Virus record (IMG/VR): IMGVR_UViG_3300021958_000049
Span: 12,669 to 76,668 of that record
Length of the DNA: 64,000 nt
Source: a virus
Taxonomy: Duplodnaviria; Caudoviricetes
Reading direction: 5' to 3' (one strand)
Part shown: positions 4,070 to 47,995 of the stretch, one piece after another
How positions within the stretch are numbered: position 1 is the first letter of the stretch
Layout: the number at the start of each line of letters is the position of its first letter
Position numbers and translations under genes: made by a program
The notes under the pieces: generated by a model
Databases searched by the model: none
The model's input: only the letters and a program-made list of their open reading frames with translations
Told to the model about the DNA's origin: nothing

Positions 4070-4735
4070 ATGTTTTTAAACGCAAGATCAGATCTATTTA
4101 AAGTTGAATTTCCTAGGACATTTATTCCTAAGGCTATTAAGGATAAGTATGCACAATATGTTTTTAGAATGCCAACGATGATTAATGATGTTACGGATTT
4201 GGTTAATTATACAATACAAACTGTTACGATTCCTACTATGAATTATACTCCAGTTGAGCAGGTAAAGCCAGATGTCAAGAATCCTTTACAACAAAGTACA
4301 ACTAATCCAAATTCTTTAGGAACTTCTACAACTGATTCAGGTAGAAATCGAAGATGGAGATCTTCCGCTAATTATCAAGAAATATTTACTAAGGAATTTA
4401 CAGTAACATTTCAATTAGTAGATGGACATGTAAATTATTGGATACTTCTTGATACCTTGCTATACTATTATGATCCTACTACAAAGACAAGATTTAACGA
4501 AAATATACCTGTGAGAATATTAGATGCAGAGGGTAATTTAATGTTTACTGCTATGTTTATGGATTGTTTATTTACTGGTTTAAGTGAATATCAATTATCT
4601 TACTCAGATTTATCACAGGAATTTAAAACCTTCGATGCAACATTCCAATATAATACGTTAGACTTAGATTTATTACCTACTAATCGAGTAAACAAAGATA
4701 AATTTCAGGTAGGTGCAACCGCAACATTTAAATAG
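4070..4735 (+). CDS. tail-tube-fold protein (T4 gp19/gp3/gp54-like paralog)
   Basis: Pattern F.V.F...VT.P...EFTVTF.L...WI...ILD..G......F..C...LSEYQLSYS...F.ATFQY typical of tube-fold proteins. Confidence 0.65.
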   Translation: MFLNARSDLFKVEFPRTFIPKAIKDKYAQYVFRMPTMINDVTDLVNYTIQTVTIPTMNYTPVEQVKPDVKNPLQQSTTNPNSLGTSTTDSGRNRRWRSSANYQEIFTKEFTVTFQLVDGHVNYWILLDTLLYYYDPTTKTRFNENIPVRILDAEGNLMFTAMFMDCLFTGLSEYQLSYSDLSQEFKTFDATFQYNTLDLDLLPTNRVNKDKFQVGATATFK

Positions 4736-7011: not shown

Positions 7012-8070
7012 ATGGATACACAACTTACACAAGAGTTAAAAAATACAATCATTGGTCGAGTATCAAATGTTTTACAATCAGAATTTCATGGTGAAAAATC
7101 TAGATTAAAACAAGGATATGATCGATTAAATTTTGCATGTCCGTATTGTGGAGATTCAACCGAAAATCTTCGTAAAAAGCGAGGTAATATTTACTGGAAA
7201 TCATTAATGTTTCATTGCTATAATTGTGATAAACATACTTCTGTTATTTATTTACTTAAGGACTTTGAACAAGGTTTAAGTAAACATGAGGATGTATCAA
7301 CTGTATTAGATTTTATATCAGAAAATCGAGTTGAAGTAAGTTCACAAGATTATTTACAAATTGGTGTTTTCGAAACTTTAGAAAAACATGCAATATCAAA
7401 AGAACAAATATTTAAAGCAAAGAAACTAACTAATTTAACAAAAGGATCAGTCGGATATAAATTTGTTAAAGGAAGATTTTTATTACAACGTATAAATCAT
7501 TTTGCTTGGTCAGATACAGATAATCAATTATACATATTTAATCTAACAAAGGATGATAAAGTAATTGGATATCAAATAAGAAATTTTACTCCAGGTAGAA
7601 CTAAATATGTTAGTTATACAATAGAAAAAATGTACAAAGAAATTCTAAACGAGGATTTAAAAATCCCTGGTATAGAAAAAGTAAATACATTATCTATATA
7701 CTATAATATCATGACGGTAGATTTATCTAGAAATTTTACAATATTTGAAGGACCTACTGATGCATTATTATATCCTAAAAATTCAATAGCATTAAGTGGT
7801 ATTAACAAAAATTCAGATATGTTTGATGATATAAACACAGCAAGATATTTTTTTGATAATGATTCTATTGGAAGAAAAACAATGGAACAAAAACTTAAAA
7901 GAAAGAAAACTGTATTCATGTGGAAAAAGTTTCTAAAAGAAAATAAGATAACTGTGCCAATTAAAGATTTTAACGATTTAATAAGACATTGTTATTTTGA
8001 CAAAAATCCGGCATATAAAACATTGGATAAATACTTTACTACAAGTCCTTATGACATCATCAACATTTAA
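7012..8070 (+). CDS. gp61: DNA primase
   Basis: CPYCGDS...HCYNC zinc finger, TOPRIM IFEGPTD, FFDNDSIG, KDFND. Confidence 0.9.
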   Translation: MDTQLTQELKNTIIGRVSNVLQSEFHGEKSRLKQGYDRLNFACPYCGDSTENLRKKRGNIYWKSLMFHCYNCDKHTSVIYLLKDFEQGLSKHEDVSTVLDFISENRVEVSSQDYLQIGVFETLEKHAISKEQIFKAKKLTNLTKGSVGYKFVKGRFLLQRINHFAWSDTDNQLYIFNLTKDDKVIGYQIRNFTPGRTKYVSYTIEKMYKEILNEDLKIPGIEKVNTLSIYYNIMTVDLSRNFTIFEGPTDALLYPKNSIALSGINKNSDMFDDINTARYFFDNDSIGRKTMEQKLKRKKTVFMWKKFLKENKITVPIKDFNDLIRHCYFDKNPAYKTLDKYFTTSPYDIINI

Positions 8071-8293
8071 AAAATTCCAAGAGTTTGTGAACGAAGAGCT
8101 AGATAAATTTTACGAAGACGCAGAAGAAACATCTAAAAATTACAAGATTCCTGTAAACTTTACGGATACTTCATCATATAACTATAATAATACTAATTCC
8201 ATGTTTACCGAAGTTAAGAAAAAAGAAACTTTAATAAAGAAAAAGAAAACATGGAATAAGAATACAAAGAATAATAATAAAGATCTATTTTAA
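8051..8293 (+). CDS. hypothetical protein (likely start 8051, not 7997)
   Basis: MTSSTFKKFQEFVNEE leader; ATG 8051 gives only a short overlap with the primase. Confidence 0.55.
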   Translation: MTSSTFKKFQEFVNEELDKFYEDAEETSKNYKIPVNFTDTSSYNYNNTNSMFTEVKKKETLIKKKKTWNKNTKNNNKDLF

Positions 8294-11659: not shown

Positions 11660-12817
11660 ATGAAAAATAAAATGATGACTTTTGATGCATTTAATCTTGT
11701 TAAGGAATTGAATGAATCTCATGATAAGTTTAACAAAGAATTAGCTTTAAACGAAGCTTTTAAATCTGATTACCTAAGAAAATTTGCTTCTCAAGAAAGT
11801 GGAACTCGTTGGCAACCAGGATTTGCAAAAGATTTCTATAAACATGCAGGAATTAAATTAGATCAGATCACTAACGAAGATTTTATTATATTATCGAATC
11901 CATCTGAATGGTGGACTCAAAAATACGCAAAGAATGACAATGCCGTTGGATTCTTTGTTGATGATGACCCAGAATTCTTAAAGGCATTAAAGAAAGCCAA
12001 GAAGCTTAAGAGTTTAGGTGGTGTCGGTGTAATTCTTACAATTATGAGAGGTAATCGTGGAATGTGGTATGGATTTGCTAAAGATGCAGGTTCAAGTTTT
12101 TCAAGATATAGAAAAGGATCTACTGAGAGATATGGTGTTCTTGCTGATGAATATGATACTGCATCTCTTTATGGATGGGATGGAGCTAAACAAAAGGCGA
12201 GAATAACTAGACCTAATCTGGAAGAAATGGCTACTAAGGTTTATGTTTTAGATATTGATGCACTTAAAGAAAAATATAGTGCTTCTGAGTTAACTTCAAA
12301 CCGTAGAGACTCTAAAGCTGGTGCTGTAGCTTTATTAAGTGATAAAGAGGTAAAAGCTGCTAATAAAGCTCGATATGAAAAAATTCTTCAAGATCGCTTA
12401 GATCCAAAATTAATGTTCGAAGATGTTAAAGAATCGATGACTAAATATACAAATTGGTTGTCGAACAAAGTATCAGAAATTACATTAGACGGTATGGAAT
12501 ACGAGAATAGCAGTTATTTTAACGAACAGAAAGTTAAATGGGGTTCTTGGAATGAGAATCTTATGAGACCTATCGAAAATATGTGGAGTTTGTTGAATAA
12601 GTTTATGAATCGTTATTATGACTTCTTGAGAGATCAAGCACATGTTGAAAGATTACAAGAAAAGCTTATTAAAGCAGATTCGACCGAAGCTCAAAAGATT
12701 CAAAGTGAAATCGACTACTATGCAAAAACATATAACAGATTCGTAAAAGAAGCTACGAGTTATAGAGATTACGTAATAAAATATAAAAAAGACGTAGATG
12801 CAATTGTTTCAAAATAA
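11660..12817 (+). CDS. putative internal head protein
   Basis: Leader MKNKMMTFDAF...LNES...LNEA; no catalytic motif recognised. Confidence 0.5.
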   Translation: MKNKMMTFDAFNLVKELNESHDKFNKELALNEAFKSDYLRKFASQESGTRWQPGFAKDFYKHAGIKLDQITNEDFIILSNPSEWWTQKYAKNDNAVGFFVDDDPEFLKALKKAKKLKSLGGVGVILTIMRGNRGMWYGFAKDAGSSFSRYRKGSTERYGVLADEYDTASLYGWDGAKQKARITRPNLEEMATKVYVLDIDALKEKYSASELTSNRRDSKAGAVALLSDKEVKAANKARYEKILQDRLDPKLMFEDVKESMTKYTNWLSNKVSEITLDGMEYENSSYFNEQKVKWGSWNENLMRPIENMWSLLNKFMNRYYDFLRDQAHVERLQEKLIKADSTEAQKIQSEIDYYAKTYNRFVKEATSYRDYVIKYKKDVDAIVSK

Positions 12818-14111
12818 ATTTAAAAGATATAATCAGTTTGTATTCGAAAAGTTAATTAACGAAGCAGATGATATTATTTTAGAAGGTGGTGCGTTTGGCC
12901 ATATGGCACATCCATACGATGATATTAATTTAACCTTTGGAGAAATTAAAAATATGATATCTGATGCTTTGCAAGGAGGATTAGATAAGGAGGTTGTTGC
13001 TTCTGAGAAATTAGATGGTCAGGCTATTGCGGTATCTTGGAGAAACGGAGAATTAGTTGCTGCAAGAAATAAAGGCCACTATAAAAACTCAGCTGCCGGA
13101 GCAATGAACGTTCAACAAACAATTGATAAGTTTGCAGGAAGAGGTGATATAAGTGATGCATTTGGTTTTGCTATTAAAGATCTATCAGATGCTATATCAA
13201 AAATAGATGCAAAGAAACGAGATGATATATTTAAGAATGGTAAATCGTTTATGCATCTAGAACTAATATATCCACCAACTACTAACGTAATTAATTATGA
13301 TGCATATCGATTAATATTCCACAGTGCTACCGAGTATGATGAGGCAGGAAATCCTATAGGAGAAGATAAAGCTTCAGCTGCTTTATTAACAAAACTTATT
13401 AAGGGTGTTAATGCAGATATTCAAAAGACTTATACAATAGTACCTCCAAAGGAGATGCAATTCACTAAAAATATTAATTATGAAGCTGATCGAGCAGAAT
13501 TCTTTAAAGAGCTAGCAAAAATACAAAAAAGTGCTGGTATGAATGATAATCAATCTATTAGTGATTATATTAGAAAAGAATACACTGACTTAATAAAAGG
13601 TGCTGCTGATAAATATGGTTATGATATTCCTGAAGATGTTTTAGAAAAACTAATCAGAAGATTTGCATTTGAGGATAAATCTTTTAAAGTACCACAATTC
13701 AAAAAGGCAATACTAAATAAAGACTTTTTAGAATGGACTCTAAAGTTCGATAAAACCGGAGTTAAAAATTACTACAAAGAAGTAATAGGACCTATTGAAT
13801 TATTGTTCTTAAAACTTGGAGTTAAGGTTATTAAATTAGCTACCGGATTTTTAGCAACTAATCCAGACAAAGAAGTTCAACGAATTAAAGATGAGCTAGA
13901 AAAACTTATTAAGGATGTTAGAGCTGGTGATAATGAAGTTAAGGTTGCTAAACTAGAAAGAGAACTTCGTAGACTTGAAGCTATCGGAGGATTTGATGCG
14001 GTAGTTCCTTCTGAAGGAATTGTATTTCAATATAAAGGAAAGACATATAAATTAACAGGAGCATTTGCACCAATAAATCAGATACTAGGTACTATCAAAT
14101 ATATGAAATAA
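12798..14111 (+). CDS. ATP-dependent ligase-fold nucleotidyltransferase (DUF6267-like, from memory)
   Basis: Motif I EKLDG, Ia ARNKG, III HLELIY, IV SEGIVF, V YKLTG; preceded by INEA/ILEG sites. Confidence 0.65.
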   Translation: MQLFQNKFKRYNQFVFEKLINEADDIILEGGAFGHMAHPYDDINLTFGEIKNMISDALQGGLDKEVVASEKLDGQAIAVSWRNGELVAARNKGHYKNSAAGAMNVQQTIDKFAGRGDISDAFGFAIKDLSDAISKIDAKKRDDIFKNGKSFMHLELIYPPTTNVINYDAYRLIFHSATEYDEAGNPIGEDKASAALLTKLIKGVNADIQKTYTIVPPKEMQFTKNINYEADRAEFFKELAKIQKSAGMNDNQSISDYIRKEYTDLIKGAADKYGYDIPEDVLEKLIRRFAFEDKSFKVPQFKKAILNKDFLEWTLKFDKTGVKNYYKEVIGPIELLFLKLGVKVIKLATGFLATNPDKEVQRIKDELEKLIKDVRAGDNEVKVAKLERELRRLEAIGGFDAVVPSEGIVFQYKGKTYKLTGAFAPINQILGTIKYMK

Positions 14112-14584: not shown

Positions 14585-15058
14585 ATGAACAATTTGAAAA
14601 GCTACGATGAATTTCTTTTTGAGGCTACTAAAGCTAAAGAAATCGAAGACAAAGTAAACGATTTAGGAGAACCAAAAGATGATAAAGCAGAAGCTGAAAA
14701 ATCTATGAAAGATTCTTCCGAAGGACCTAAAGAAGTTGGTGCTGAAAAGGCCGATATTAAAAAGGATGAATTGAAAAAGGATGATAAAGCTGAAGCTGAA
14801 AAATCTATGAAAGATTCCTCTGAAGGACCTAAAGAACCTAAAGAAGAAAAAATCGAAGATGTTAAAGAAATGTCTGAGTATAACGAGAAACATGATAAAT
14901 ATGATGATCGTCTTGTAAACATGACTATTGGAAAAGTTTTAGATTATCTAAAAACTAAGGATCCTAACGCATATAAAGATATTGAGGCTTATTTAGAAAA
15001 GAACTTTAAAGATTTGACTAGTGCAGATGAATCTTGGTTTACTACTATGACTGCTTAA
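14585..15058 (+). CDS. acidic putative internal head protein with internal duplication
   Basis: Leader MNNLKSYDEFLFEA; DDKAEAEKSMKDSSEGPKE twice; late motif upstream. Confidence 0.6.
   Translation: MNNLKSYDEFLFEATKAKEIEDKVNDLGEPKDDKAEAEKSMKDSSEGPKEVGAEKADIKKDELKKDDKAEAEKSMKDSSEGPKEPKEEKIEDVKEMSEYNEKHDKYDDRLVNMTIGKVLDYLKTKDPNAYKDIEAYLEKNFKDLTSADESWFTTMTA
14678..14836 (+). repeat. 57-bp direct repeat, 2 copies (14678-14734, 14780-14836)
   Basis: gatgataaagc(a/t)gaagctgaaaaatctatgaaagattc(ttcc/ctct)gaaggacctaaagaa; differences are synonymous. Confidence 0.9.
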
Positions 15059-25807: not shown

Positions 25808-27013
25808 ATGGCAAGTAAAGAATTTTCATTCGAAGATTTAAATAAATCTTTATCAAAGCATTCTCTATATGGAGAAACCATGGATAGGAGTACCTTTTCT
25901 AAAATCGATGAATTTATAGGAACTGGAAACTATTTATTAAATGCCTGTTTATCAGGTAGTTTATTTGGTGGTATACCAAACAATAGATCAGTATGTTTTG
26001 CAGGACCTTCAGGAACTGGAAAAACATTCTTATTATTAAATGTAGTAAGACAAGCACAAGAGCAAGGCTATCAAATCGTTTTTTACGATTCAGAAACTGC
26101 AATTGATATTGAATTGATTCAAAAGTTTGGAATTGATCCAAAGAAATTTAGATATGAACCTTGTAATACAATACAAGAATTCAGAACATCTATAACTAAT
26201 TTAGTTAAAATATTAAGTGAACAAAAACGAAAAGGAGCTGAAGTTCCTAAAATTATGGTTTGCTTAGATTCATTAGGTAACCTTGCTTCTCAAAAAGAAA
26301 TTGATGATGCAATGAGTGGTAGTGATAAAGCCGATATGACAAGAGCTAAAACTATTAAATCATTATTCCGTATATTAGGAACTCAATTAGCAGAATGTAA
26401 AATACCATTTGTATTTACAAATCACACTTATTCCGGTCAATCTTTTATCCCTATCGTTACAGCAGGTGGTGGTACTGGACCTGAATACTTCGCTTCAATT
26501 ATATTATTTTTAAGAAAGGCGCAGTTAAAGGAAGGACAAGAAAAAGCCGGTATTGTGGTGACAGCGACTCCAAATAAAAATCGTTTTGCTAAACCTACTC
26601 CGGTTAAATTCATAATTCATTTTAGCAAAGGTATGAATAAATTCATGGGATTACAGAATTATATTTCATGGGAAAATTGCGGTATTGCAAAAGGAAATAT
26701 TATCCAAGCTAAAGATATCGATAAACAAAAGATATCAGATAAAGAAAAGGATAAATTACGAGAAACAATATGGACATCCGAAAAGAATGGATTAGAACTT
26801 GCATTCGTTGGTAAAGAAACCGCAAGAAAATATGTCGCAAGACATATGGATGATACAATTGATATACAAGAATTGTTTTCTCCTGTAGGATTTCCACAAG
26901 AAGTTCTAGAAAATTTAGATAAAAACATTATTCAACCTAGCTTCTCTTACGGAACTAACGAAACAATCGTTGATGAGTTAGAATCTATAATAGAATCAAA
27001 TGACGAAGAATGA
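25808..27013 (+). CDS. uvsX: RecA-like recombinase
   Basis: GPSGTGKT, FYDSETA, CLDSLGNL, FTNHTY, GGGTGPEYFAS, KNRFAKP. Confidence 0.92.
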   Translation: MASKEFSFEDLNKSLSKHSLYGETMDRSTFSKIDEFIGTGNYLLNACLSGSLFGGIPNNRSVCFAGPSGTGKTFLLLNVVRQAQEQGYQIVFYDSETAIDIELIQKFGIDPKKFRYEPCNTIQEFRTSITNLVKILSEQKRKGAEVPKIMVCLDSLGNLASQKEIDDAMSGSDKADMTRAKTIKSLFRILGTQLAECKIPFVFTNHTYSGQSFIPIVTAGGGTGPEYFASIILFLRKAQLKEGQEKAGIVVTATPNKNRFAKPTPVKFIIHFSKGMNKFMGLQNYISWENCGIAKGNIIQAKDIDKQKISDKEKDKLRETIWTSEKNGLELAFVGKETARKYVARHMDDTIDIQELFSPVGFPQEVLENLDKNIIQPSFSYGTNETIVDELESIIESNDEE

Positions 27014-33007: not shown

Positions 33008-35008
33008 ATGAGCAAATTAAAGAATTTTGACGAATTTGTCAATGAAAATTTGGTTATCGGAGGAACATACAAACACTTCGGACCTGGATCATTAGATCCT
33101 ATTATTCAAAAGCTTATAGGTGAAGGAAAGAACGAATCTATTATTAGAACATACTTAACATCACTTGGTGTTGAATCTTGGAGAATAGATAAAGCAATGT
33201 CTAAATTTGGTGGAGTTGAATTTTCAGGTGAAAAGAATATGAACGAAGCTAAATCAAAGAAAACTTTCGAAGAAACTGCAAATAAATTTCTTTCTGATAT
33301 TAATGAAGAAGACGAAGAATCTATCGATGAAGCATCTCGTTGGAAAGGAAAGGAAATATTTCCTAATTGGGTTAAACCAAATGAAATTTCAGGATTAATC
33401 AAAAAAGAAAAGGATTTAGAAAAAGGTTCTATGTACGCTTTATTAGACTTAGGTTTAGATGTTTGGCAAGCGGAATATGAATACGAAGGAAAGGTTGGGC
33501 CTATACATATATTTAAATCAACTGCTCAAGGAACTAGCGATGATTCTAATATAGAATTTACTGATAGTGAATTAAAATCTGCACTTAAGAATTTAGAAAT
33601 TGCAGTAATGGAAGCTTATCAAATGGCTATGAATGAAGCTAAAATTAATAAAAACGCTAAACGTTCAATAAGACCTCATAATAAAGTAAAACCAGGAATG
33701 GTTGCTATAGACTATAATGACGAACCTTACACAGTTGTTGGAGTTGGTAAAGCTAGTGAATTACTTGATTTTGATGATAGTGGAATTGCTGCTGATGGAA
33801 TGGATATGGATGAACCAGCAATCGCAACAATAGGAAGAGGTGGTTATGCTGTTTATTCTTATATGCCTGATGGTGCCGTTGTTTACGAATCAGAAGTTAA
33901 TGAAGCTAAATTTGTAAAAGATTTTAATAAAGATGTTTTAGATGCTACTACAGAAAAGGAAGTAAAGTCAATATATCCTAAAGCGGTATTCTTTATCGGA
34001 AAACATTCACACTTTTTTGGAGAACTTGAAGATAACTTATTCTTTAAAGCATACTATATTAAAGGAAGGAGTGAATTTGAAATCAAATCAATTTATTCTC
34101 AGAAAGGAAGTAAATATGTTCATTTATATCTTAATGAATCAATGGTTAATGAAGCTAAAAAATACACAATAAAAGATATTATATCTGCTTACAAAGACGC
34201 TTTTGGTGAAGATATCACGAAAGGCGATAGAGTAGATATAATAGACGATATCAAATCTGATTACAAAGGTAAGATCACTATAGATGACTTAAAGGCTATT
34301 TATGACGATAGATATGGTGAGGAAATTGAAGCAGACTTTTTGGATGCATTAGGCGAATCTGTTAACGAAGCTAAAAAGAAAACTTTTGAAGATGCTGCCG
34401 CTGCATTTATTTTAGGTCTTGCTGGTAGCGACCAAATCGACGAAATGTCAGAAAACAAAATGCCAACTAACGAGGAAGTAACAAAATGTATTGCAGATGG
34501 AATGACTTACGAACAAGTTTGTGAGAAATATCCCGATGCAGATAAAGCAAAGTTAAAAGAAATGTACGAATCGTGTGGTAAAAAACATGAGAGTGTATCA
34601 GAAAAACTTAATAAAGAATCTCTTCAAATTGAAGAAGGTGACGGTGAAGATATTGATGATATGATCGACGATCTTGCCGATGGTGATGAAGATGAATATC
34701 AAGGTGCTGATGATGAAGCTCCTAAAGATAAAGATTCTGATGATTCTGATGATTCTGAATCTGGTTTAGATAAAGCAGTTAAAGATGCTAAAAAAGATAA
34801 GAAAAAACTAGATAAAATTAAAGACATATTAACAAGCGAAGCGGAAGAAGTTGAGCTTGATAAAGACGGAAAAGAAGAAAAAGATAAAGAAAACATCGAA
34901 GACGAAGAAAGTGGAGATGAGATCGAAATCGAAGAATCCGTTGATAAGGAAAGTGATGCATACATGGCTGCAGTACTTGAAGGTCTTAAAAAGAAATTCA
35001 ACGGGTAA
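33008..35008 (+). CDS. putative internal head polyprotein of NEAK-delimited modules
   Basis: Leader MSKLKNFDEFVNE; NEAK at 33242, 33632, 33899, 34148, 34364; acidic tail. Confidence 0.65.
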   Translation: MSKLKNFDEFVNENLVIGGTYKHFGPGSLDPIIQKLIGEGKNESIIRTYLTSLGVESWRIDKAMSKFGGVEFSGEKNMNEAKSKKTFEETANKFLSDINEEDEESIDEASRWKGKEIFPNWVKPNEISGLIKKEKDLEKGSMYALLDLGLDVWQAEYEYEGKVGPIHIFKSTAQGTSDDSNIEFTDSELKSALKNLEIAVMEAYQMAMNEAKINKNAKRSIRPHNKVKPGMVAIDYNDEPYTVVGVGKASELLDFDDSGIAADGMDMDEPAIATIGRGGYAVYSYMPDGAVVYESEVNEAKFVKDFNKDVLDATTEKEVKSIYPKAVFFIGKHSHFFGELEDNLFFKAYYIKGRSEFEIKSIYSQKGSKYVHLYLNESMVNEAKKYTIKDIISAYKDAFGEDITKGDRVDIIDDIKSDYKGKITIDDLKAIYDDRYGEEIEADFLDALGESVNEAKKKTFEDAAAAFILGLAGSDQIDEMSENKMPTNEEVTKCIADGMTYEQVCEKYPDADKAKLKEMYESCGKKHESVSEKLNKESLQIEEGDGEDIDDMIDDLADGDEDEYQGADDEAPKDKDSDDSDDSESGLDKAVKDAKKDKKKLDKIKDILTSEAEEVELDKDGKEEKDKENIEDEESGDEIEIEESVDKESDAYMAAVLEGLKKKFNG

Positions 35009-39831: not shown

Positions 39832-41583
39832 ATGGATCAACCGAAATTATTGGTATTAGAGAGATCAACTTCGATTCTCGAAGCAAGTGCCGACGAAAAA
39901 TATGTTTTGGAGGGAGTCTTTTCAGAGATTGGGAAAAAGAATAAGAACAATCGTATATATGATGAAAAGGAATTAATACCTCACATAGAAGCATTGCAAG
40001 AAAAAATTAAAACTGGAAAGTTATTAGGTGAATTAGATCACCCAAAACAATTCGATATCTCATTAAAAAACGTATCACACGTAATAGAAGATATTACTTA
40101 TGATAAAGCTAATAAAGTTGTTAAAGGTAAGATTCGTTTGTTAGACACTGAATCTGGAAAACAAGCTAAAGCGCTTGTTGATGGTGGAATTCCTATTCAT
40201 ATTTCTAGTAGAGCTGCTGGTGTTGTTGAGAACAACGGTCATGTTAAAATTAAAAAGCTTTTCACTTACGATTTAGTCGCTGATCCTGGATTCGAAAACG
40301 CAGAATTAAAACGAGTTAATGAAGCGTATGGATTTGGTGAAGATGATAACGTACAAATATACGAATTAGAAGGATATATAGAAAATAACAATATAGAAAT
40401 ACAAAAAGAACTCGATACAATGGAAAATATCAAAGATACTACACCCATTAATGAAGGTCAAGGTAATTTCGTTTCAGTAGAAGATTTCAACGAATACTCT
40501 AAAATTATTAAAGAGCAATTCGAATCTTTAAAAGCCGATATTGGTAATGTTACAGAAAGCGACCAAACTCCGGATTTAATAAAATATACTGAAAGGGTTG
40601 CTAAACGAGTTAACGATCTATCTTCATATATGGAGAAAGTTAGCGAAAACGTTGATAATCTAATCTCACATAACGATTATATTATTGAGAACCTTGATAA
40701 GGTAAAAGATTATGCTGAATATGTTGGTCTTAAAACCGATCAAAATATTGAGTACTCAAAACATGTTGTTGAAGGAGTAAATAATAGATTTGCTTACCAA
40801 GATTACGTAAACGAAAACGTTGATAAAGTTATTGACTATCAAAATTATTTAGTTGAAGGTATTGATGCGGCTGTTTCATATAGCGAATATATTAAAGAGA
40901 ACGTTGAAAACTTAGGTAAATATACAGATTATATAGTTAAATCTTTAAACGAAACTAAAGAGGAAGTAGTAAAAACCGAAGAAACGGTAAATGAATCTAC
41001 TGAATCTACTGAAACTGCTTCAGAAGAAACAGTTATTACAGAAAATGAAACTTACAAATTAGAATTAACAAATAAAATTCAAGCGTTAGTCGAATCCGCT
41101 AAGACGCAAAAAGTGGAAGAAACGTCTGCTAACACCCACTTCTTAAATTTCTTAGATGAATCACGAAGAACTGAATTTAAAGCATTTGATGATGAGACTA
41201 AAACGAAAGTTATTAGAGCTTATGAGTCAGATACTTGGTTCGGATCAACGGATGCATCAGGTATTTGGGAGTCGGTATTCGCTGAGCCTGTTAAATCAAT
41301 AGACTGGCTAGAAAATATGCCTGAGAAACATCAAAGTGCATGGGATTCTTTAAATGAATCACAACAAACTGCGATTAAAGCTCAAGCATCTGTGAGAAAT
41401 CTCGATACACAGTATAAGATCGATCACTTCTGGGCAACTAGAGATTTACGTTCGCATAATCCATCTGAACAAATAAATGAAGGAATTTCTTTGAATGAGT
41501 CGAAAGACGATTCGAAATACGAAACTTCATCTGTTTACATGGAATCTGTTACAGAAGGACTTAAACGACGCTTTAACAAATAA
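39832..41583 (+). CDS. gp21: prohead protease fused to scaffold-like coiled coil
   Basis: LEGVF, NKNNRIY, GELDHP, ISSRAAG, YDLVADPGF; followed by ~400 aa coiled coil with 14-residue periodicity. Confidence 0.9.
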   Translation: MDQPKLLVLERSTSILEASADEKYVLEGVFSEIGKKNKNNRIYDEKELIPHIEALQEKIKTGKLLGELDHPKQFDISLKNVSHVIEDITYDKANKVVKGKIRLLDTESGKQAKALVDGGIPIHISSRAAGVVENNGHVKIKKLFTYDLVADPGFENAELKRVNEAYGFGEDDNVQIYELEGYIENNNIEIQKELDTMENIKDTTPINEGQGNFVSVEDFNEYSKIIKEQFESLKADIGNVTESDQTPDLIKYTERVAKRVNDLSSYMEKVSENVDNLISHNDYIIENLDKVKDYAEYVGLKTDQNIEYSKHVVEGVNNRFAYQDYVNENVDKVIDYQNYLVEGIDAAVSYSEYIKENVENLGKYTDYIVKSLNETKEEVVKTEETVNESTESTETASEETVITENETYKLELTNKIQALVESAKTQKVEETSANTHFLNFLDESRRTEFKAFDDETKTKVIRAYESDTWFGSTDASGIWESVFAEPVKSIDWLENMPEKHQSAWDSLNESQQTAIKAQASVRNLDTQYKIDHFWATRDLRSHNPSEQINEGISLNESKDDSKYETSSVYMESVTEGLKRRFNK

Positions 41584-41607: not shown

Positions 41608-43275
41608 ATGAACTTAATTAATGAATCTGAAATTTTCGGAAAATGGGCTCCAATTATCGAGTCAACTACTGGAATCGAAGACAAAGGTAAATTAGGGTGG
41701 ATGTCTAAATATTGCCATAACCACGAGTTGTATGAGAATAATTCTTATGCACAAGTTGGATCTGTAAACGGTATGGGATCAGTAAGATTTCCTGGTAACC
41801 CAGGAGCTCAAACTGCTTTCGGTGCTCAAACTACAGGATCTGGTGATAAGCCTTACACTCTTCTTCCGCTTGCAATGCAAGTTGCTGCACAAACTGTTGG
41901 ATTAGACTTAGTACCAGTTGTTCCTATGAACGGACCAATGGGTATCTTAACTTATTTAGACTTTGTGTACGGTGGAGGTAAAGTACCTACTGTTGGACAA
42001 ACTGGTGGATCAATCACAACTGCTGGAACAACTCCAGACATGCCATTACTAATTAAAGTAGATGGTGCAATCACTGCTGCTGGTGGAACATTTACTGCTG
42101 CTCCTGTTGCCGGTGAACAAGTAGTATCAAATACTGGTGCTACATTTACTTTCGTAGGTGAATCTAGAATCGATGGATTTGACATCTTTAAAGTAGACGC
42201 ATTAGCCGCTAGCCAAAACGTTGCTGCTGCACTTGTTGCAGGTACAACATTAACATGGACTGCTGGTGGAACTGGTGTAATTACTACTTCAGGTTCTCCT
42301 GCTCTAGTAAAAGCACTAGAAGATCACGTAATTGGTTTCTCTTCTAACAAATGGGATGGTTCTTCTGAGCCAATGTCAAGATTAGAAGGTGAAGGTACAC
42401 AAGATAACGTAATGAACTTAAGCCTATTCAACAAATCAGTTGAGGCTAAAACTTACCAAGTTGCTGCTGCAGTAACTCGTGAGCAAGTTCAAGATCTTAA
42501 GCAATTCGGTATCGATGCTGTTGCACAAGTTGAATCTGTACTTATCAATGAGTTAACTCAAGATATTAACAGAAACATCCTTGAAAGACTACGTAGACTT
42601 GGTTATACTAACCACGGTAATGTGTACAAAACTCAAGGTGTTCAATTCAACTTATTAGTTGGAACTACTACTGGTAACACATACTCTGCAATTCCTGCTC
42701 TAGCTGCTTTAAATAGTGCTGGTTCTGATGGTGTAGCGGTATTTGGTGCTGCTGGTACTTACAATCCGGTAGTTGCATCTTCTGAAACTAACTCTGCTGC
42801 TGAGAATTTACATACTAGACAACGTAAAATCATGTCTAAAATTCTTGCAACTGCGAACTTAATCGCAATCAGAGGTAGACGTGGACCTGCTACTTTCGCC
42901 GTTACAAACGGTCAAGTAGGATCTGCTTTACAAGATGTTGCTGGATTCGTTCCTGCTCCAATGGCAAATACGCTAAATCAACAAACTGGTTCATTGTACC
43001 CAATCGGTACTTTAGCTGGATTGGCTATTTACGTAGATCCATACATGAGCTGGAGTGATACTCGAGTAACTGTAGGTAGAAAAGGTGATGGAAACTCTCC
43101 AGGACTTGTATTCATGCCATACTTAATGGCTGAATCAGTACAAACTATCGCTGAGGGAACAATGGCGCCAAAAATCGCTGTTAAATCTCGTTACGCTTTA
43201 GTTGAAGCTGGATTCCACCCAGAATCTATGTACATCACATTCGGTGTAGCAAACGAAGCTGGTGGTTGGGCTTAA
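41608..43275 (+). CDS. gp23: major capsid protein
   Basis: KWAPIIE, DLVPVVPMNGPMG, LINELTQDINR, FMPY, KSRYAL. Confidence 0.93.
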   Translation: MNLINESEIFGKWAPIIESTTGIEDKGKLGWMSKYCHNHELYENNSYAQVGSVNGMGSVRFPGNPGAQTAFGAQTTGSGDKPYTLLPLAMQVAAQTVGLDLVPVVPMNGPMGILTYLDFVYGGGKVPTVGQTGGSITTAGTTPDMPLLIKVDGAITAAGGTFTAAPVAGEQVVSNTGATFTFVGESRIDGFDIFKVDALAASQNVAAALVAGTTLTWTAGGTGVITTSGSPALVKALEDHVIGFSSNKWDGSSEPMSRLEGEGTQDNVMNLSLFNKSVEAKTYQVAAAVTREQVQDLKQFGIDAVAQVESVLINELTQDINRNILERLRRLGYTNHGNVYKTQGVQFNLLVGTTTGNTYSAIPALAALNSAGSDGVAVFGAAGTYNPVVASSETNSAAENLHTRQRKIMSKILATANLIAIRGRRGPATFAVTNGQVGSALQDVAGFVPAPMANTLNQQTGSLYPIGTLAGLAIYVDPYMSWSDTRVTVGRKGDGNSPGLVFMPYLMAESVQTIAEGTMAPKIAVKSRYALVEAGFHPESMYITFGVANEAGGWA

Positions 43276-43301
43276 TACCTAATACCATAACTTATAGTTT
43301 C

Positions 43302-43327
43302 AAAAGGTCTCCTTCGGGAGACCTTTT
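43302..43327 (+). terminator. UUCG-tetraloop terminator after the major capsid gene
   Basis: AAAAGGTCTCC-TTCG-GGAGACCTTTT then T-rich. Confidence 0.9.
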
Positions 43328-43372
43328 GTTTTTTGATACGAATATATAGAATATAAAATAAACTCTATAGAA

Positions 43373-45721
43373 ATGAATCTAATAACAAGAGGCGAATACG
43401 ATAGTATCAATGAAGCCGTTATAGGCTTAAGAAGATTAGCATCTAAGGAAGATTTAGAAGCGGTTAATGACCAGGAATTTAATGAAATGATTAAATTTTT
43501 GTTACTACTTAATAATCAAACTGGTGCTCGTTTATGTGAATCTCATTACACTCTAATAAAAGAATTGATGATAAAATCAGATTTGGTTAACGAATCTAGA
43601 TTCGAATCAATGGATAGTATAGTTGCTATTAATGAAAACTATATCAATGAAGATTGGGATGATGATGTTAGTAAAGGAATAACAACAGCGGCAGTAACAA
43701 CTGGAGCGGCAGCAGTATCTTTAGCAGCATACATATCTTTCTTATTTAAAAAGAAGAAAATTAGAAAGGCTTGGGAAAAGGTTAGAGATAAAGAATTAGA
43801 AGCTGTTAATGTTGATAAGGATTTAGCCGATACTATTAAGTCTTATGAACCTGAACTTTCGAAAGAAGAGGTTGCTGATAAAGTTTCTGAAATAGAAAAG
43901 AAGAAGGAAGAGGAGAAAACTGCATTAAAAGATTTTGATGCTAATAAAAAAGAAGAGGTTGAGAAGACTGAAGATAAATTAAAAAAGACTGAGGATGTTA
44001 TTAGAGATTTAGATTCGTCAGAGGCTGGTGGTGAGAAAAAGGAAGAGACCAAGCCAAAGGTAAAACCAAAATCTAAAACTGAGGTTCAGGAAGCTGAGGA
44101 TACAACAACCGTTGATAAGACTAAAGGTAATACTGATGAAGAGGAGGCCACTGGTAAAATACCTGATAAGAAAAAGGAAATTAAAGATATAAAAGATAAT
44201 TCTGATATAGAGGGCGAATTAGAAAAGCTTCGAAAAGAAACCGCTAAAATAGAAGATGAAAATAAGAAGATTAAAGAAAAGGGTGGTAAAGACGCTACTA
44301 AGAAACTTGAAGCAAAATCTAAGGAAAAAAAGAAAATATCTGATAAAATAAAGGAAGTTGAAGAAGAAGGAACCCCTGAATTAAAAAAGGCCAAAGACGA
44401 ATTAAAGGTTTTAAATAAAGATCTTGAAAAAGAAAAGTCAAATAGAGATAATCAAAAGGATACTATAAAATCTGCTAGAGACGAGGAGGCTATCAAAAAA
44501 GAAAAGGAAGATTTAAAATCTAATATAGAATCTGCTGAGACCGAGATTAAAGATATTAAAGAAAAGGGTAAGCCTCGTGGAACTGATAAAGAAAAGAAAC
44601 AAGCAATTGATGATGCAACAAAACAAAAGGAACAAATTGCGTTAGAGGTTGAAGCTGCCAAAAAGGAAGCTGATAGAATTAGTGGAACTAGTGGTGGTGG
44701 CGAAAAAGCTAAAGGTGTTGGTGGAAAAATATTTGGATTTTCTTCAGGATACGTACAACAAATAAAGGGTGAACATGCAATCGAAGTGTTACAAGCTAAA
44801 AAGGATGCATTGACTACTAATGATACAATATCAGATAAAGATAAAGCTGCTCAAGAAAAGGCAATTGATGCACAAATAGCAAAAAGTAAAGAATCTATTA
44901 AAAATGGAGAAGAGACTTTAAAGAATGCAACCGACGGCGTTGATGCTTCTGATGAAGAAATTAAAACTGCAGAACAGGGAGTTAAGGATAAGGAATCCGA
45001 ACAAGAGGCTGAAAAGACTAAAAAAGACGCCAAAGATAAGGCTAATAAAAAGGAAGCTATTGATGATGAAATAGAAAGACTTAATAAAAAAATTGAAGGA
45101 GCTAAAAAAGCTTTAGATGGCGGCAATATCCCTAAAGGAAAGGAAGAAATGGTAAAAGCTAACATCGATGCATTTAATGATAAGAAGGCAGAGCTACGCA
45201 AAATGAAAGATAAGTTAGGTGAGTCTACGTATTACAAATTTAATTTAGCTTTATTAGAACGAGATATAGATGCATTATTAAATGAATATAACATTATAGT
45301 AGAAACTCGAAAAGAATTATTAGAAGAGGAACCTAGCGATCCAAAAGATGATGAATCTGGCAGTGACAAATCGGATAAGAGTAATTCACTAGAAGGAAAA
45401 AAGGTTGTACTAGTTGATATGAGAATTAAAGATCTTGGAGCGTTAGAAGGTGCTACTGGTGAAATAATTAAAGTGTTTAAAGAAAACGAACGTGAACCTG
45501 AAGGAGACTTACCAAGAAGAACAGGAGATCCAGAAATATTCAAAATTAAATTAGATAAACCAAAGGATCCTATGTATCCAGAAATCAATTTAACCAAAAA
45601 GAATTTTAAATTAAAGGAAGATAAGCCGGAATCTAAAGAGGAAGGGACTAACGAGAATATTAACGAATCTTTTAGACAACGATTCTATAACGCATATAAT
45701 GATACAAATAAAAAGATCTAA
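43373..45721 (+). CDS. large K/E-rich coiled-coil putative internal/ejection protein with one hydrophobic segment
   Basis: Late motif; INEA, VNES, INEN, INED sites; GITTAAVTTGAAAVSLAAYISFLF then KKKK. Confidence 0.55.
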   Translation: MNLITRGEYDSINEAVIGLRRLASKEDLEAVNDQEFNEMIKFLLLLNNQTGARLCESHYTLIKELMIKSDLVNESRFESMDSIVAINENYINEDWDDDVSKGITTAAVTTGAAAVSLAAYISFLFKKKKIRKAWEKVRDKELEAVNVDKDLADTIKSYEPELSKEEVADKVSEIEKKKEEEKTALKDFDANKKEEVEKTEDKLKKTEDVIRDLDSSEAGGEKKEETKPKVKPKSKTEVQEAEDTTTVDKTKGNTDEEEATGKIPDKKKEIKDIKDNSDIEGELEKLRKETAKIEDENKKIKEKGGKDATKKLEAKSKEKKKISDKIKEVEEEGTPELKKAKDELKVLNKDLEKEKSNRDNQKDTIKSARDEEAIKKEKEDLKSNIESAETEIKDIKEKGKPRGTDKEKKQAIDDATKQKEQIALEVEAAKKEADRISGTSGGGEKAKGVGGKIFGFSSGYVQQIKGEHAIEVLQAKKDALTTNDTISDKDKAAQEKAIDAQIAKSKESIKNGEETLKNATDGVDASDEEIKTAEQGVKDKESEQEAEKTKKDAKDKANKKEAIDDEIERLNKKIEGAKKALDGGNIPKGKEEMVKANIDAFNDKKAELRKMKDKLGESTYYKFNLALLERDIDALLNEYNIIVETRKELLEEEPSDPKDDESGSDKSDKSNSLEGKKVVLVDMRIKDLGALEGATGEIIKVFKENEREPEGDLPRRTGDPEIFKIKLDKPKDPMYPEINLTKKNFKLKEDKPESKEEGTNENINESFRQRFYNAYNDTNKKI

Positions 45722-46178
45722 ACCTGGTAAAAATCCAACTAAGCATGGTATTGTTTTAGAGGGACTTAAACCATTATATCAAAATACGTTAAAGAAATAT
45801 GAATTCATTAAAGATGTTTGTGACGATGATAAGTTCTTAAATATAATGTTTAATATAATCGATAAAGAATCTAGGATAAAAAATAAAAGTAAATTTTTTA
45901 TAGATCCAACGGATTTAAAAATTAAATCTAGAGATCGTTTACAAGACGAAATACGAATAATTCCTTGGAAATGTTCATTTTGTCAATGCGAAATAAAATC
46001 TAAAATGGATAATTTTTCCGTTAAGAATTTTACTTGCAAAGATTGCTATGATACATATACTAAAGATGGAAAAATCGTTAGCGAATTAATATTAAATAAT
46101 TCGGTAGAATTTACGGAACATTGCAAACGATTAATAAATAAAGATAGAAAAAACTTTTTAAAATACATTTCAAAATAA
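45699..46178 (+). CDS. C4 zinc-finger hypothetical protein
   Basis: CSFC...CKDC. Confidence 0.6.
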   Translation: MIQIKRSKPGKNPTKHGIVLEGLKPLYQNTLKKYEFIKDVCDDDKFLNIMFNIIDKESRIKNKSKFFIDPTDLKIKSRDRLQDEIRIIPWKCSFCQCEIKSKMDNFSVKNFTCKDCYDTYTKDGKIVSELILNNSVEFTEHCKRLINKDRKNFLKYISK

Positions 46179-47636
46179 ATGAAACATTTCGAAAACTTTC
46201 AATTAATAACTGAGGCGTTATCCTTTAATAAGGTACAAGTAATAATACTTTCGAACTTAGAAGCAGAGTCAACTACAGTAGATGCCGTAGTAAAAGCTTG
46301 TAAAAGGCGTGGAGTACCTTGTTACCCATTAAATGTTAAGACAGCGTTTATTAAGGAATTTGTAAATAAACGTAATGATATTAAAATTGGCGATGCCGAT
46401 AATAAGCCTATTGCAATCAATCGATCAAATACTGTTATTCTTTCTAGACGAGGTATTGTTAATTCTACATATACAAGACAATTATTAGAAGACTTAGAAT
46501 CTTACAACTTCTTTTGTGTAAATACTTTGAATTCTATAATGACTTGTGAAAATAAGAACACAACAAATAGAATATTAGAAGCTGCTGGATTACCAACACC
46601 TAAAAATTCGATACTATCGGATCCTGAAGGAATAGATCAAGCACTAAAAGATATTGGTGGTAAGTTTCCAGTCATTGTAAAAATGTTATCAGGTTCTCAA
46701 GGTATTGGCGTTTCTCAAGTTGATTCTTACGAATCATTAAAATCAGTATTACAAACTCTTTGGAAAGCTAGTGGCAAAAATGAAATATTATTACAGGAAA
46801 TGATACCTGCAACCGGTGATGTGAGAATTCATGTTTTATCTAAAAAATTCTTTAGTCCTGATGATGAACATTCTGAGGTAATTGCGGTAATGCAAAGAAC
46901 AGCTGCTAAAAAAGATTTTAGAACAAATTATTCAATTGGCGGTGGAGTTAAGAAATTTAAGTTAACTAAGGAAATGGAACAAATTGCAAAGGATGCTGCA
47001 AAAGCTGTTGATGCAACTTGGTGTGCTGTTGATTTAATCATAGATAAGAATACGAAGAAACCTTATATATTAGAAGTTAATGGATCTCCTGGTACTAAAG
47101 GAATTACAGAAGCTACTGGATTACCAGTAGTTAAAATAGTATTAGATTATATATTAAATAAAGAAAATTGGACATATCCTAATATCAGCTGTGGTTTTAG
47201 GGAAGTGATTACAATTCCAGGTGTTGGTGATTATGTGTGTAAAATGGACACAGGAAATGGCGGAAAGGCATTATCTATACATGGAGAAAACGCAAAAGTT
47301 AATGGAAAATACTTAGAATATGAAATTAACGGAAAGTCTTACAAAGATAAAATCGTAGATTATTCAAATCCAGTTGTAGGAGAAGAAACTTTAGAAAGAC
47401 CTATTATATTAAAGGATCTTGTATTCGCCGGTAAATTAGTACCTAAAGTTCCAATATCAATAGTTGATAGAACAGAAAAATCTACACCGGCATTAGCTAA
47501 TCGAAAATTTATGGATAGATTAGGTATAAATGTTAGTCCATCTAAAGCTTTTAGAGCTACATCTTTTGATGGTGGTGAATACTCGGTTGAGGATTCTATA
47601 GGTAATGCTCTAGGAGGAATTAAATTCGAAAAATAA
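46179..47636 (+). CDS. rimK: RimK-family ATP-grasp ligase fused to RimB-type retropepsin-like protease
   Basis: NK..T..IL.AAGLPTP, FPVIVK..SGSQGIGV, LLQEMI, DFRTNYSIGG, AVDL, LEVNGSPG; then CKMDTG...RP...ISIVDRTEKSTPALANRKFM. Confidence 0.9.
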   Translation: MKHFENFQLITEALSFNKVQVIILSNLEAESTTVDAVVKACKRRGVPCYPLNVKTAFIKEFVNKRNDIKIGDADNKPIAINRSNTVILSRRGIVNSTYTRQLLEDLESYNFFCVNTLNSIMTCENKNTTNRILEAAGLPTPKNSILSDPEGIDQALKDIGGKFPVIVKMLSGSQGIGVSQVDSYESLKSVLQTLWKASGKNEILLQEMIPATGDVRIHVLSKKFFSPDDEHSEVIAVMQRTAAKKDFRTNYSIGGGVKKFKLTKEMEQIAKDAAKAVDATWCAVDLIIDKNTKKPYILEVNGSPGTKGITEATGLPVVKIVLDYILNKENWTYPNISCGFREVITIPGVGDYVCKMDTGNGGKALSIHGENAKVNGKYLEYEINGKSYKDKIVDYSNPVVGEETLERPIILKDLVFAGKLVPKVPISIVDRTEKSTPALANRKFMDRLGINVSPSKAFRATSFDGGEYSVEDSIGNALGGIKFEK

Positions 47637-47656: not shown

Positions 47657-47995
47657 ATGGCAACAACCGCAAAATACGCAATAGTATCTAATGGACCTAC
47701 ATATTATTCTCAATCAGATCCATTCAATAAAACACCTATAACATGTGACCATTTCTGTGCATACGCAAAAGATTATGTTGTAGGATCAACTTCCGTAACA
47801 TTTAAAGCCCAGTTCGGCGATGTTGCAGGACCTACTTTTACAAGAGTCTTTACTAAAGAATATGAAGTTGGTGGAACTGTGTTATCTAATTGGGATACTG
47901 ATCCTGAATATATTTTGAATCATATTGCAGCATTCGAATCGTTAACAGTAACTTCTTTTACAGACTTAGGTTTTACTAAATCACCATTTGAATAG
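47657..47995 (+). CDS. hypothetical protein
   Basis: 112 aa ORF with A-rich leader. Confidence 0.6.
   Translation: MATTAKYAIVSNGPTYYSQSDPFNKTPITCDHFCAYAKDYVVGSTSVTFKAQFGDVAGPTFTRVFTKEYEVGGTVLSNWDTDPEYILNHIAAFESLTVTSFTDLGFTKSPFE

Follow-up and report, generated by a model that had tools for sequence, protein, structure and literature searches.

The 64,000-nucleotide (nt) window analysed here covers positions 12,669 to 76,668 of the IMG/VR virus record IMGVR_UViG_3300021958_000049 (Caudoviricetes); all coordinates below are those of the window. It has a G+C content of about 31% and carries nearly all of its genes on the + strand. One of them, at 46179 to 47636, encodes a protein in which a short leader, a RimK-family ligase and a retropepsin-like protease of the PF05618 superfamily follow each other, and for this predicted bifunctional poly-alpha-glutamate enzyme we propose the name "RimKB". 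The parts of the gene are as follows (aa, amino acids).

46179..47636, + strand: whole gene, encoding leader, RimK-family ligase and PF05618 retropepsin-like protease; 485 aa, ATG start
46179..46214, + strand: leader, residues 1-12 (MKHFENFQLITE), a predicted propeptide with a predicted cut at E12/A13 (from conservation, disorder and likeness to T4)
46230..46547, + strand: pre-ATP-grasp N-terminal domain of the RimK type, about residues 18-123 (TIGR00768 match at residues 38-325; strands and helices in the model)
46548..47153, + strand: RimK-like ATP-grasp catalytic domain, residues 124-325 (PF08443, E 2.1e-31; aligned to Pseudomonas RimK 7qyr)
47181..47564, + strand: retropepsin-like aspartic protease domain of the PF05618 superfamily, about residues 335-462 (profile against the PDB, AlphaFold2, Foldseek)
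47247..47255, + strand: catalytic Asp-Thr-Gly (D357, T358, G359), invariant in 62 domain sequences and aligned with the DTG of RloA, RloA2 and DUF785
47565..47633, + strand: conserved C-terminal tail ending G-G-I-K-F-E-K, with G480, I481 and F483 invariant in 27 full-length homologues

RimK-family ligases add L-glutamate, in an ATP-dependent reaction, to the C-terminal Glu of a protein or of a growing Glu chain. A first-pass annotation of the window, made by a model from the letters alone, had noticed a complete set of ATP-grasp RimK motifs, and this is borne out. The Pfam RimK model PF08443 matches with 109.5 bits (cut-off 21), and the NCBIfam model TIGR00768 ("RimK family alpha-L-glutamate ligase") with 154 bits, which exceeds the curated threshold of 143.4. 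K168, the glycine-rich loop 170-178, E207, D246-N250, D285, E299 and N301 are invariant in the 27 full-length homologues and align to Pseudomonas RimK; the DFRTN and LEVN.SPG motifs, the D...E.N metal ligands and the ATP-grasp lysine are likewise invariant in this set. The closest solved structures to the ligase are those of RimK from Pseudomonas (7qyr, 7qys) and E. coli (4iwx, 5zct), with E values from 5e-23 to 1e-19. A scan against PHROGs returned the ligase family 2599 as the sole match.

The protease part is barely visible to direct searches. The PF05618 Pfam model matched neither the whole window protein nor the C-terminal 155 aa at a threshold as loose as E<=10, which speaks against the assignment, and a single-sequence phmmer search against the PDB reached an E value of only 0.47, to chains named "putative ATP-dependent zinc protease domain". 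The homology is thus visible only via a family profile, the fold and the relatives. C-terminal domains were excised by locus coordinates from IMG/VR relatives, and 62 of them were aligned into a profile. In the PDB this profile matches P. aeruginosa RloA2 (9g59, E 2.7e-11), Legionella Lpg0085/DUF785 (2pma, 6.7e-10) and P. fluorescens RloA (9g58, 2.8e-9), and the matches span positions 6-133 of 156, i.e. nearly the full domain. Longer relatives with the same order of RimK and then protease exceed the PF05618 cut-off by themselves (37-46.6 bits versus 27). Of the two hidden Markov model searches that the first-pass annotation had suggested as a check, the one for RimK therefore succeeded directly (PF08443, TIGR00768), whereas PF05618 failed as a direct match and was reached through the family profile and the relatives.

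From the alignment, AlphaFold2 gives a confident all-beta domain (predicted local distance difference test, pLDDT, 91.3; predicted template modelling score, pTM, 0.85). Foldseek ranks 2pma, 9g59 and 9g58 at the top (E ~1e-7, target-normalised template modelling score 0.73-0.77), with dozens of HIV-1 and HIV-2 proteases next in the ranking, so the retropepsin fold on which the earlier proposal depended is recovered. The DTG triplet had been placed at 47247-47255 and lies exactly there, as residues 357-359. D-T-G-N is invariant among the 62 domain sequences, and K355, D357-G361, R407, R431 and R442 are invariant among the full-length homologues. Also present in the domain is the pattern of R.P, DR and L.NR that had been taken as a mark of the RimK-associated protease family. 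K355, R407 and R431 align with K46, R114 and R137 of RloA, residues that touch the poly-Glu substrate and have conserved counterparts in RimB. The latter, a retropepsin-like endopeptidase whose catalytic Asp D31 belongs to the DTG, cleaves where about 5-6 or more Glu are contiguous and boosts poly-alpha-Glu synthesis by RimK (PMC11957791).

Judged by profile, fold and active site, the C-terminal third is a RimB/Rlo-type retropepsin-like aspartic endopeptidase, predicted to act as a dimer that cuts within poly-Glu. Its conserved tail forms a short strand in the domain model, is modelled with low confidence in the full-length protein, and is possibly a dimer-interface strand. The domain identities and the intact active sites leave very little room for doubt. 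A writer-eraser fusion with the ligase first and the protease second, as originally suggested, is well supported by sequence, profile and fold, and by intact catalytic and poly-Glu-binding residues.

The N-terminus is MKHFENFQLITE/A, as had been described, a disordered 12-residue extension ending I-T-E/A (L-I-T-E). The full-length model gives residues 1-15 a pLDDT <50 and places the RimK N-domain's first strand at 20-25; since this strand starts only at residue 20, the extension lies outside the fold. M1 and E12 are invariant in the full-length homologues and A13 is nearly so. No [LIV]-x-E site other than that at E12 is conserved throughout the family (59 of 62 sequences), the runner-up being E207 on a buried ATP-grasp strand. 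Across the family the leaders vary in length and almost always end in aromatic-x-x-aromatic-[LIV]-x-Glu; the next residue is Ala, Ser or Gly, and a linker of varying length comes after it. For comparison, the capsid-targeting sequence (CTS) of T4 is MKTYQEFIAE and is removed by a single gp21 cut (PMC8442874). The head-internal proteins of T4 and Alt, a packaged and injected enzyme, carry propeptides of 10-20 residues, Alt being processed at ITE-6 (PMC5694885).

The leader does not stand alone. A regular expression modelled on the T4 CTS, with the end of the motif within the first 25 residues, found four other open reading frames (ORFs) in the record, versus 0.68 expected from the internal rate (P 0.005).

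8051-8293, + strand: motif-bearing ORF (regular expression)
12798-14111, + strand: motif-bearing ORF (regular expression)
14585-15058, + strand: motif-bearing ORF (regular expression)
33008-35008, + strand: motif-bearing ORF (regular expression)

In the flanks of 80 related loci, with the fusion gene itself excluded, 62 ORFs carry the motif versus 11.5 expected (P 2e-25), and a stereotyped form of the type MKNIPSFEEFLNE/S is frequent among their leaders. T4-CTS-like leaders in the window, with that of a further ORF at 11660-12817 (+ strand) included, read ..FQEFVNE, ..YNQFVFE, ..YDEFLFE/A and ..FDEFVNE. No Pfam family was found for any of the ORFs at 8051-8293, 11660-12817, 12798-14111, 14585-15058 and 33008-35008; we regard the ORFs with CTS-like leaders as candidate head cargo.

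An enzyme suited to cutting such leaders is encoded nearby, next to the major capsid protein.

39832..41583, + strand: T4 gp21-type prohead protease (S77) with a scaffold-like tail, the predicted leader-cutting enzyme (PF03420, E 2.2e-11, 44 bits versus a cut-off of 27)
41608..43275, + strand: T4 gp23-type major capsid protein (PF07068, E 4.6e-40)

The S77 gene lies between a T4-type portal gene and the gp23-type capsid gene, and an S77 prohead protease is encoded in all four of the complete 319-430-kb genomes that carry the fusion. The earlier description of the leader as capsid-targeting-like has thus held up well: it is disordered, its conservation stops at the Glu, it occurs on unrelated ORFs, and a T4-type prohead protease is encoded nearby. 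On these sequence features we lean towards a capsid-targeting propeptide as its function.

The capsid protein matches that of an uncultured 462-kb phage (LR756500) at 55% and those of the Lak megaphages of Prevotella at 39%. As its nearest relatives belong to much larger phages, the 76.7-kb record is probably a fragment of a far bigger genome. A strong terminator follows the capsid gene (43301-43328), and behind it comes a tightly packed block of four genes, of which the fusion gene is the third; the others are:

43373..45721, + strand: 782-aa Lys/Glu-rich low-complexity protein starting MNLITRGEYDSINE/A (an I-N-E/A site), first gene of the block; no family match
45699..46178, + strand: 159-aa Cys-rich protein (zinc-finger-like or treble-clef-like), upstream of the fusion gene
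47657-47995, + strand: 112-aa ORF immediately downstream of the fusion gene, ending ..SPFE (program ORF)

A recognisable homologue of the 782-aa protein occurs in just 5 of 82 loci. The 159-aa ORF, whose stop codon abuts the ATG of the fusion gene, is found directly upstream in about 20 syntenic loci, where it overlaps or abuts the RimK-RimB start. It is a virus-only protein for which neither a family assignment in Pfam or PHROGs nor an Atlas lead was obtained, and it may be a dedicated partner or regulator of RimK-RimB. A C-terminal Phe-Glu recurs in this region, in ..SPFE of the 112-aa ORF and in ..IKFEK of the fusion protein. About 18 related loci preserve the arrangement portal, protease, capsid, ..., 159-aa ORF, fusion, ..., clamp loader, RNase H.

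The octamer GATATATA occurs at 14 sites of the window, for example at 4735, 14553, 39797 and 58193; each of them is on the + strand, and 8.3 would be expected for the two strands together. Most sites lie 25-50 nt before gene starts, that of the prohead protease included, and a variant differing at one position precedes the 782-aa gene. From its placement the octamer looks like a late-promoter element. A scan for sigma-70 promoters gave 50 sites versus 47.3 in shuffles and thus no excess, as expected for a phage of this type. The octamer and the gene block fit, without proving it, an expression of the fusion together with the head genes.

The fusion family is widespread. IMG/VR holds at least 541 fusion loci on contigs of up to 430 kb; hundreds are in 100-430-kb phages, and others are in T4-like marine phages that infect SAR11-type hosts. 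When 1.84 billion cluster representatives were searched with the profile, 2,402 matched at E<=1e-3, most of them with the domain at about 320-490 of a protein of 450-500 residues. In a scan of 185,579 bacterial and archaeal species (one genome each), the phage-type protein was found on two contigs of metagenome-assembled genomes (MAGs), which are probably binned phage DNA. With just these two matches there is no sign of a cellular origin and no firm host, and the fusion family is essentially phage-only. Pelagibacter phage Mosig has the same architecture at 36% identity, annotated as "glutathione synthetase", and so do the Yersinia phages YerA41 and GN1 at 33% identity (for YerA41 over residues 70-455), annotated as "structural protein". 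In the literature on phage RimK function, or on RimK in huge phages, we found annotations only. In T4-like marine myophages (Mosig, L001, and L074-L082) the fusion leader ends in ..LEE/A or ..ITE/K.

In longer, multi-enzyme relatives (P0123, P0103, P0112, P0167 and P0176), DUF6267 and/or a cytidylyltransferase-like domain are followed by RimK, PF05618 and then DUF3140 or HNH; these proteins have CTS-like N-termini and [LIV]xE sites in their linkers. Of 8 such polyproteins, with the order nucleotidyltransferase, RimK, protease and DUF3140, 7 have a [LIV]-x-E site at a distance of 10-25 residues ahead of the RimK module's first strand, which is only weakly significant given that the linkers are Glu-rich; this position matches that of the leader site in the stand-alone form. 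The window gene is the minimal stand-alone form of this RimK-protease module.

For the homologue of YerA41 there is a record from virions. Liquid chromatography-tandem mass spectrometry of purified YerA41 particles identified 63 proteins, among them g112, a "ribosomal protein modification protein". This is YerA41_066, the "structural protein" of the GenBank entry, and its gene is of the middle class and lies beside ribonucleotide reductase genes. Its presence in virions is the sole experimental hint at packaging, and a weak one. A role in DNA hypermodification, considered by way of YerA41, was discarded; the modification of that phage is described as oligosaccharide-like, without mention of a glutamyl or ATP-grasp link.

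To the reading that we favour, a bifunctional poly-Glu enzyme that is packaged into the head by means of a T4-type tag, ejected with the DNA and active early in the host, we give about an even chance. The fusion gene would be expressed along with the head genes, the tag would dock the protein onto the scaffolding core of the prohead, and the gp21-type prohead protease would remove residues 1-12 by cutting after I-T-E12. The mature enzyme would remain in the filled head, would be ejected with the DNA and would be active in the new host ahead of any phage gene expression. There, the ligase would extend a C-terminal Glu by alpha-linked Glu and the fused protease would trim the chain and, by analogy with Pseudomonas RimB, stimulate the ligase. 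The target would most likely be a protein that ends in an acidic Glu C-terminus, and ribosomal protein S6 heads the candidates. We infer the target as well as packaging, cleavage and ejection.

Several observations weigh against this proposal. In other clades the fusion is far from the head genes: it lies about 100 kb from the prohead protease in the huge-phage clade, and in the T4-like marine phages, including Mosig, it is found between regA and the DNA polymerase gene, overlapping the end of regA by about 20 nt. As RimK forms tetramers and the protease dimers, the enzyme would have to unfold or come apart to get through the tail. The YerA41 homologue has an N-terminus without a clear [LIV]xE leader, and the virion list of this phage is unspecific, as it also holds polymerases, helicases and ribonucleotide reductase. 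As for S6, the protein of a Bacteroidota (Saprospirales) MAG that holds a related phage contig ends in ..KEEEEKEG and not in Glu, which says little, and the link between MAG and phage is weak. The S6-ligase equivalog NF007764 scores 83.2 bits, far under its cut-off of 331, and the highest-scoring equivalog-type model is not this one but MptN, with 131 bits (130.9) versus a cut-off of 350. Since all equivalog models are far below their cut-offs, the enzyme is a RimK-family member to which S6 is not assignable as substrate by homology.

The lead of MptN over the S6 ligase, together with the fusion of some relatives to nucleotidyltransferase domains, is what an alternative of a different kind can draw on, in which the ligase would act on a small molecule (a cofactor or metabolite, like MptN and CofF) or add another amino acid, and the C-terminal domain would be a non-proteolytic regulator. 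However, the best solved relatives are RimK proteins, and the DTG and the poly-Glu-contacting basic residues are invariant in hundreds of diverged copies; this speaks for a functional poly-Glu peptidase, and such a peptidase for a peptide product. We therefore hold this alternative to be very improbable.

The position of the gene in other clades bears on the question of whether the enzyme is virion cargo at all. The same bifunctional enzyme could be made during infection as the product of a cytoplasmic auxiliary gene, remodelling ribosomes or other proteins, and the shared N-terminal motif would then be a docking or degradation tag or a protein-level expression signal. This would suit the RimK-only homologues of PHROG 2599, which are ordinary cyanophage auxiliary genes, the placement of the fusion in a replication cluster beside the translational repressor regA, and the middle-class expression of YerA41 g112. 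On the other hand, the leader is disordered, lies outside the fold, ends in a canonical gp21-type site and closely resembles the T4 CTS; it is shared with many unrelated small ORFs in phages with a T4-type protease; and the YerA41 protein was detected in virions. The genes for internal proteins of T4, too, lie outside the head cluster. On balance, we consider an enzyme that stays outside the virion rather unlikely.

Returning to packaging and injection, S6 is favoured as the target because of the biology of the family and because bacterial RimBK hybrids are common in Flavobacteriales, the type of host suggested here. The pointers to the host are the capsid protein, nearest to Lak megaphages of Prevotella, and one related contig binned in the Saprospirales MAG; S6 of the other MAG, whose link to the phage is weak as well, ends in ..LEEENN. 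Host S6 is a possible target, but only a tentative one.

Phage proteins, too, offer ends that a RimK enzyme might extend. Four phage ORFs end in Glu, among them the gene immediately downstream of the fusion (..PFE) and the UvsX/RecA-like ORF at 25808-27013, which ends in ..NDEE just as the first-pass annotation had noted when it raised UvsX as a conceivable substrate. For UvsX this is a formal possibility that nothing supports, three other ORFs likewise ending in Glu. More generally, the enzyme could be packaged but act on phage material, extending the Glu C-termini left by prohead protease cuts or making free poly-alpha-glutamate, a polyanion that would have its role inside the head or in the cell just infected, e.g. 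as counter-ion or DNA mimic. Each gp21-type cut does leave a C-terminal Glu, the type of end that RimK extends, and RimB stimulates the synthesis of free poly-alpha-Glu by RimK. However, the idea is purely inferential, the head would be a sealed space without ATP supply, no ORF of the 76.7-kb record encodes a run of at least four Glu that could serve as protease substrate, and no partner gene is conserved in all clades. In the huge-phage clade (L014-L057), a conserved 59-75-aa ORF with ..EKTEKIQVLLSEEDL.. lies just downstream of the fusion in many loci. An action on phage material seems improbable to us. Its specific form, a ligase coupled to head maturation, where prohead cuts leave a C-terminal Glu, the RimK module adds poly-alpha-glutamate tails and the protease sets their length, we regard as more improbable still. 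If true, injected proteins would bear a phage-made polyanionic tag, or free poly-Glu would serve as counter-ion or DNA mimic, in place of or in addition to the modification of host S6.

If the tag works as in T4, the phage would deliver a ready-made poly-Glu writer and eraser just as infection begins. After T4 Alt, the protein would be the second example of an injected enzyme that rewires host machinery, its target probably being the ribosome, and the capsid-targeting principle of T4 would be widely used among the huge phages of Bacteroidota. The fusion family itself is unstudied, and it combines elements that were all known before, namely RimK/RimB chemistry, T4 capsid targeting and the logic of an injected enzyme like Alt.

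To our knowledge, bacterial protein polyglutamylation is known from one system, RimK/RimB acting on ribosomal protein S6, which tunes translation and has been dissected only recently. The phage protein has the same two modules as Pseudomonas RimK/RimB and bacterial RimBK, i.e. a RimK-family ligase and a PF05618 protease with DTG and a basic poly-Glu channel. In the bacterial RimBK hybrid (Desulfotalea psychrophila DP2392), found mostly in marine Flavobacteriales and Rhodobacterales, the RimB domain is N-terminal to RimK (Little et al. 2025, PMC11957791); phages are not mentioned in that study. The protease thus comes first in RimBK, whereas in the phage family and in all relatives examined RimK comes first and the protease last, and this reversed order indicates that the phage fusion is independent of bacterial RimBK. 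The phage fusion further differs from the bacterial system by its N-terminal propeptide, by having neither RimA nor cyclic di-GMP control, and by a protease domain beyond the direct reach of Pfam.

With T4 Alt and the internal proteins IPI-III it shares the short N-terminal tag ending in [LI]-x-E, like MKTYQEFIAE or the ITE-6 site, and the setting of a T4-type prohead protease and capsid protein, the window phage being T4-like but distantly so, as its capsid protein is nearest to that of the 462-kb phage and to Lak. Alt provides the precedent, as an enzyme that travels in the head and modifies host machinery when it enters the cell; its activity is ADP-ribosylation, whereas glutamylation and deglutamylation are predicted here. 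The cyanophage "ribosomal protein S6 glutaminyl transferase" (PHROG 2599) is also a RimK-family ligase of large myophages, but it matches the ligase part only (residues ~86-324). YerA41 g112/YerA41_066 has the same ligase-protease architecture and is found in virions, but has no clear T4-type leader. Finally, among solved structures the C-terminal domain comes closest to RloA and RloA2 (9g58, 9g59) and Legionella Lpg0085 (2pma), with which it has in common the DTG and the K/R/R contacts to poly-Glu. The Rlo proteins are secreted, periplasmic, stand-alone enzymes with signal peptides, whereas the phage domain is fused to a ligase and would be cytoplasmic or virion-borne.

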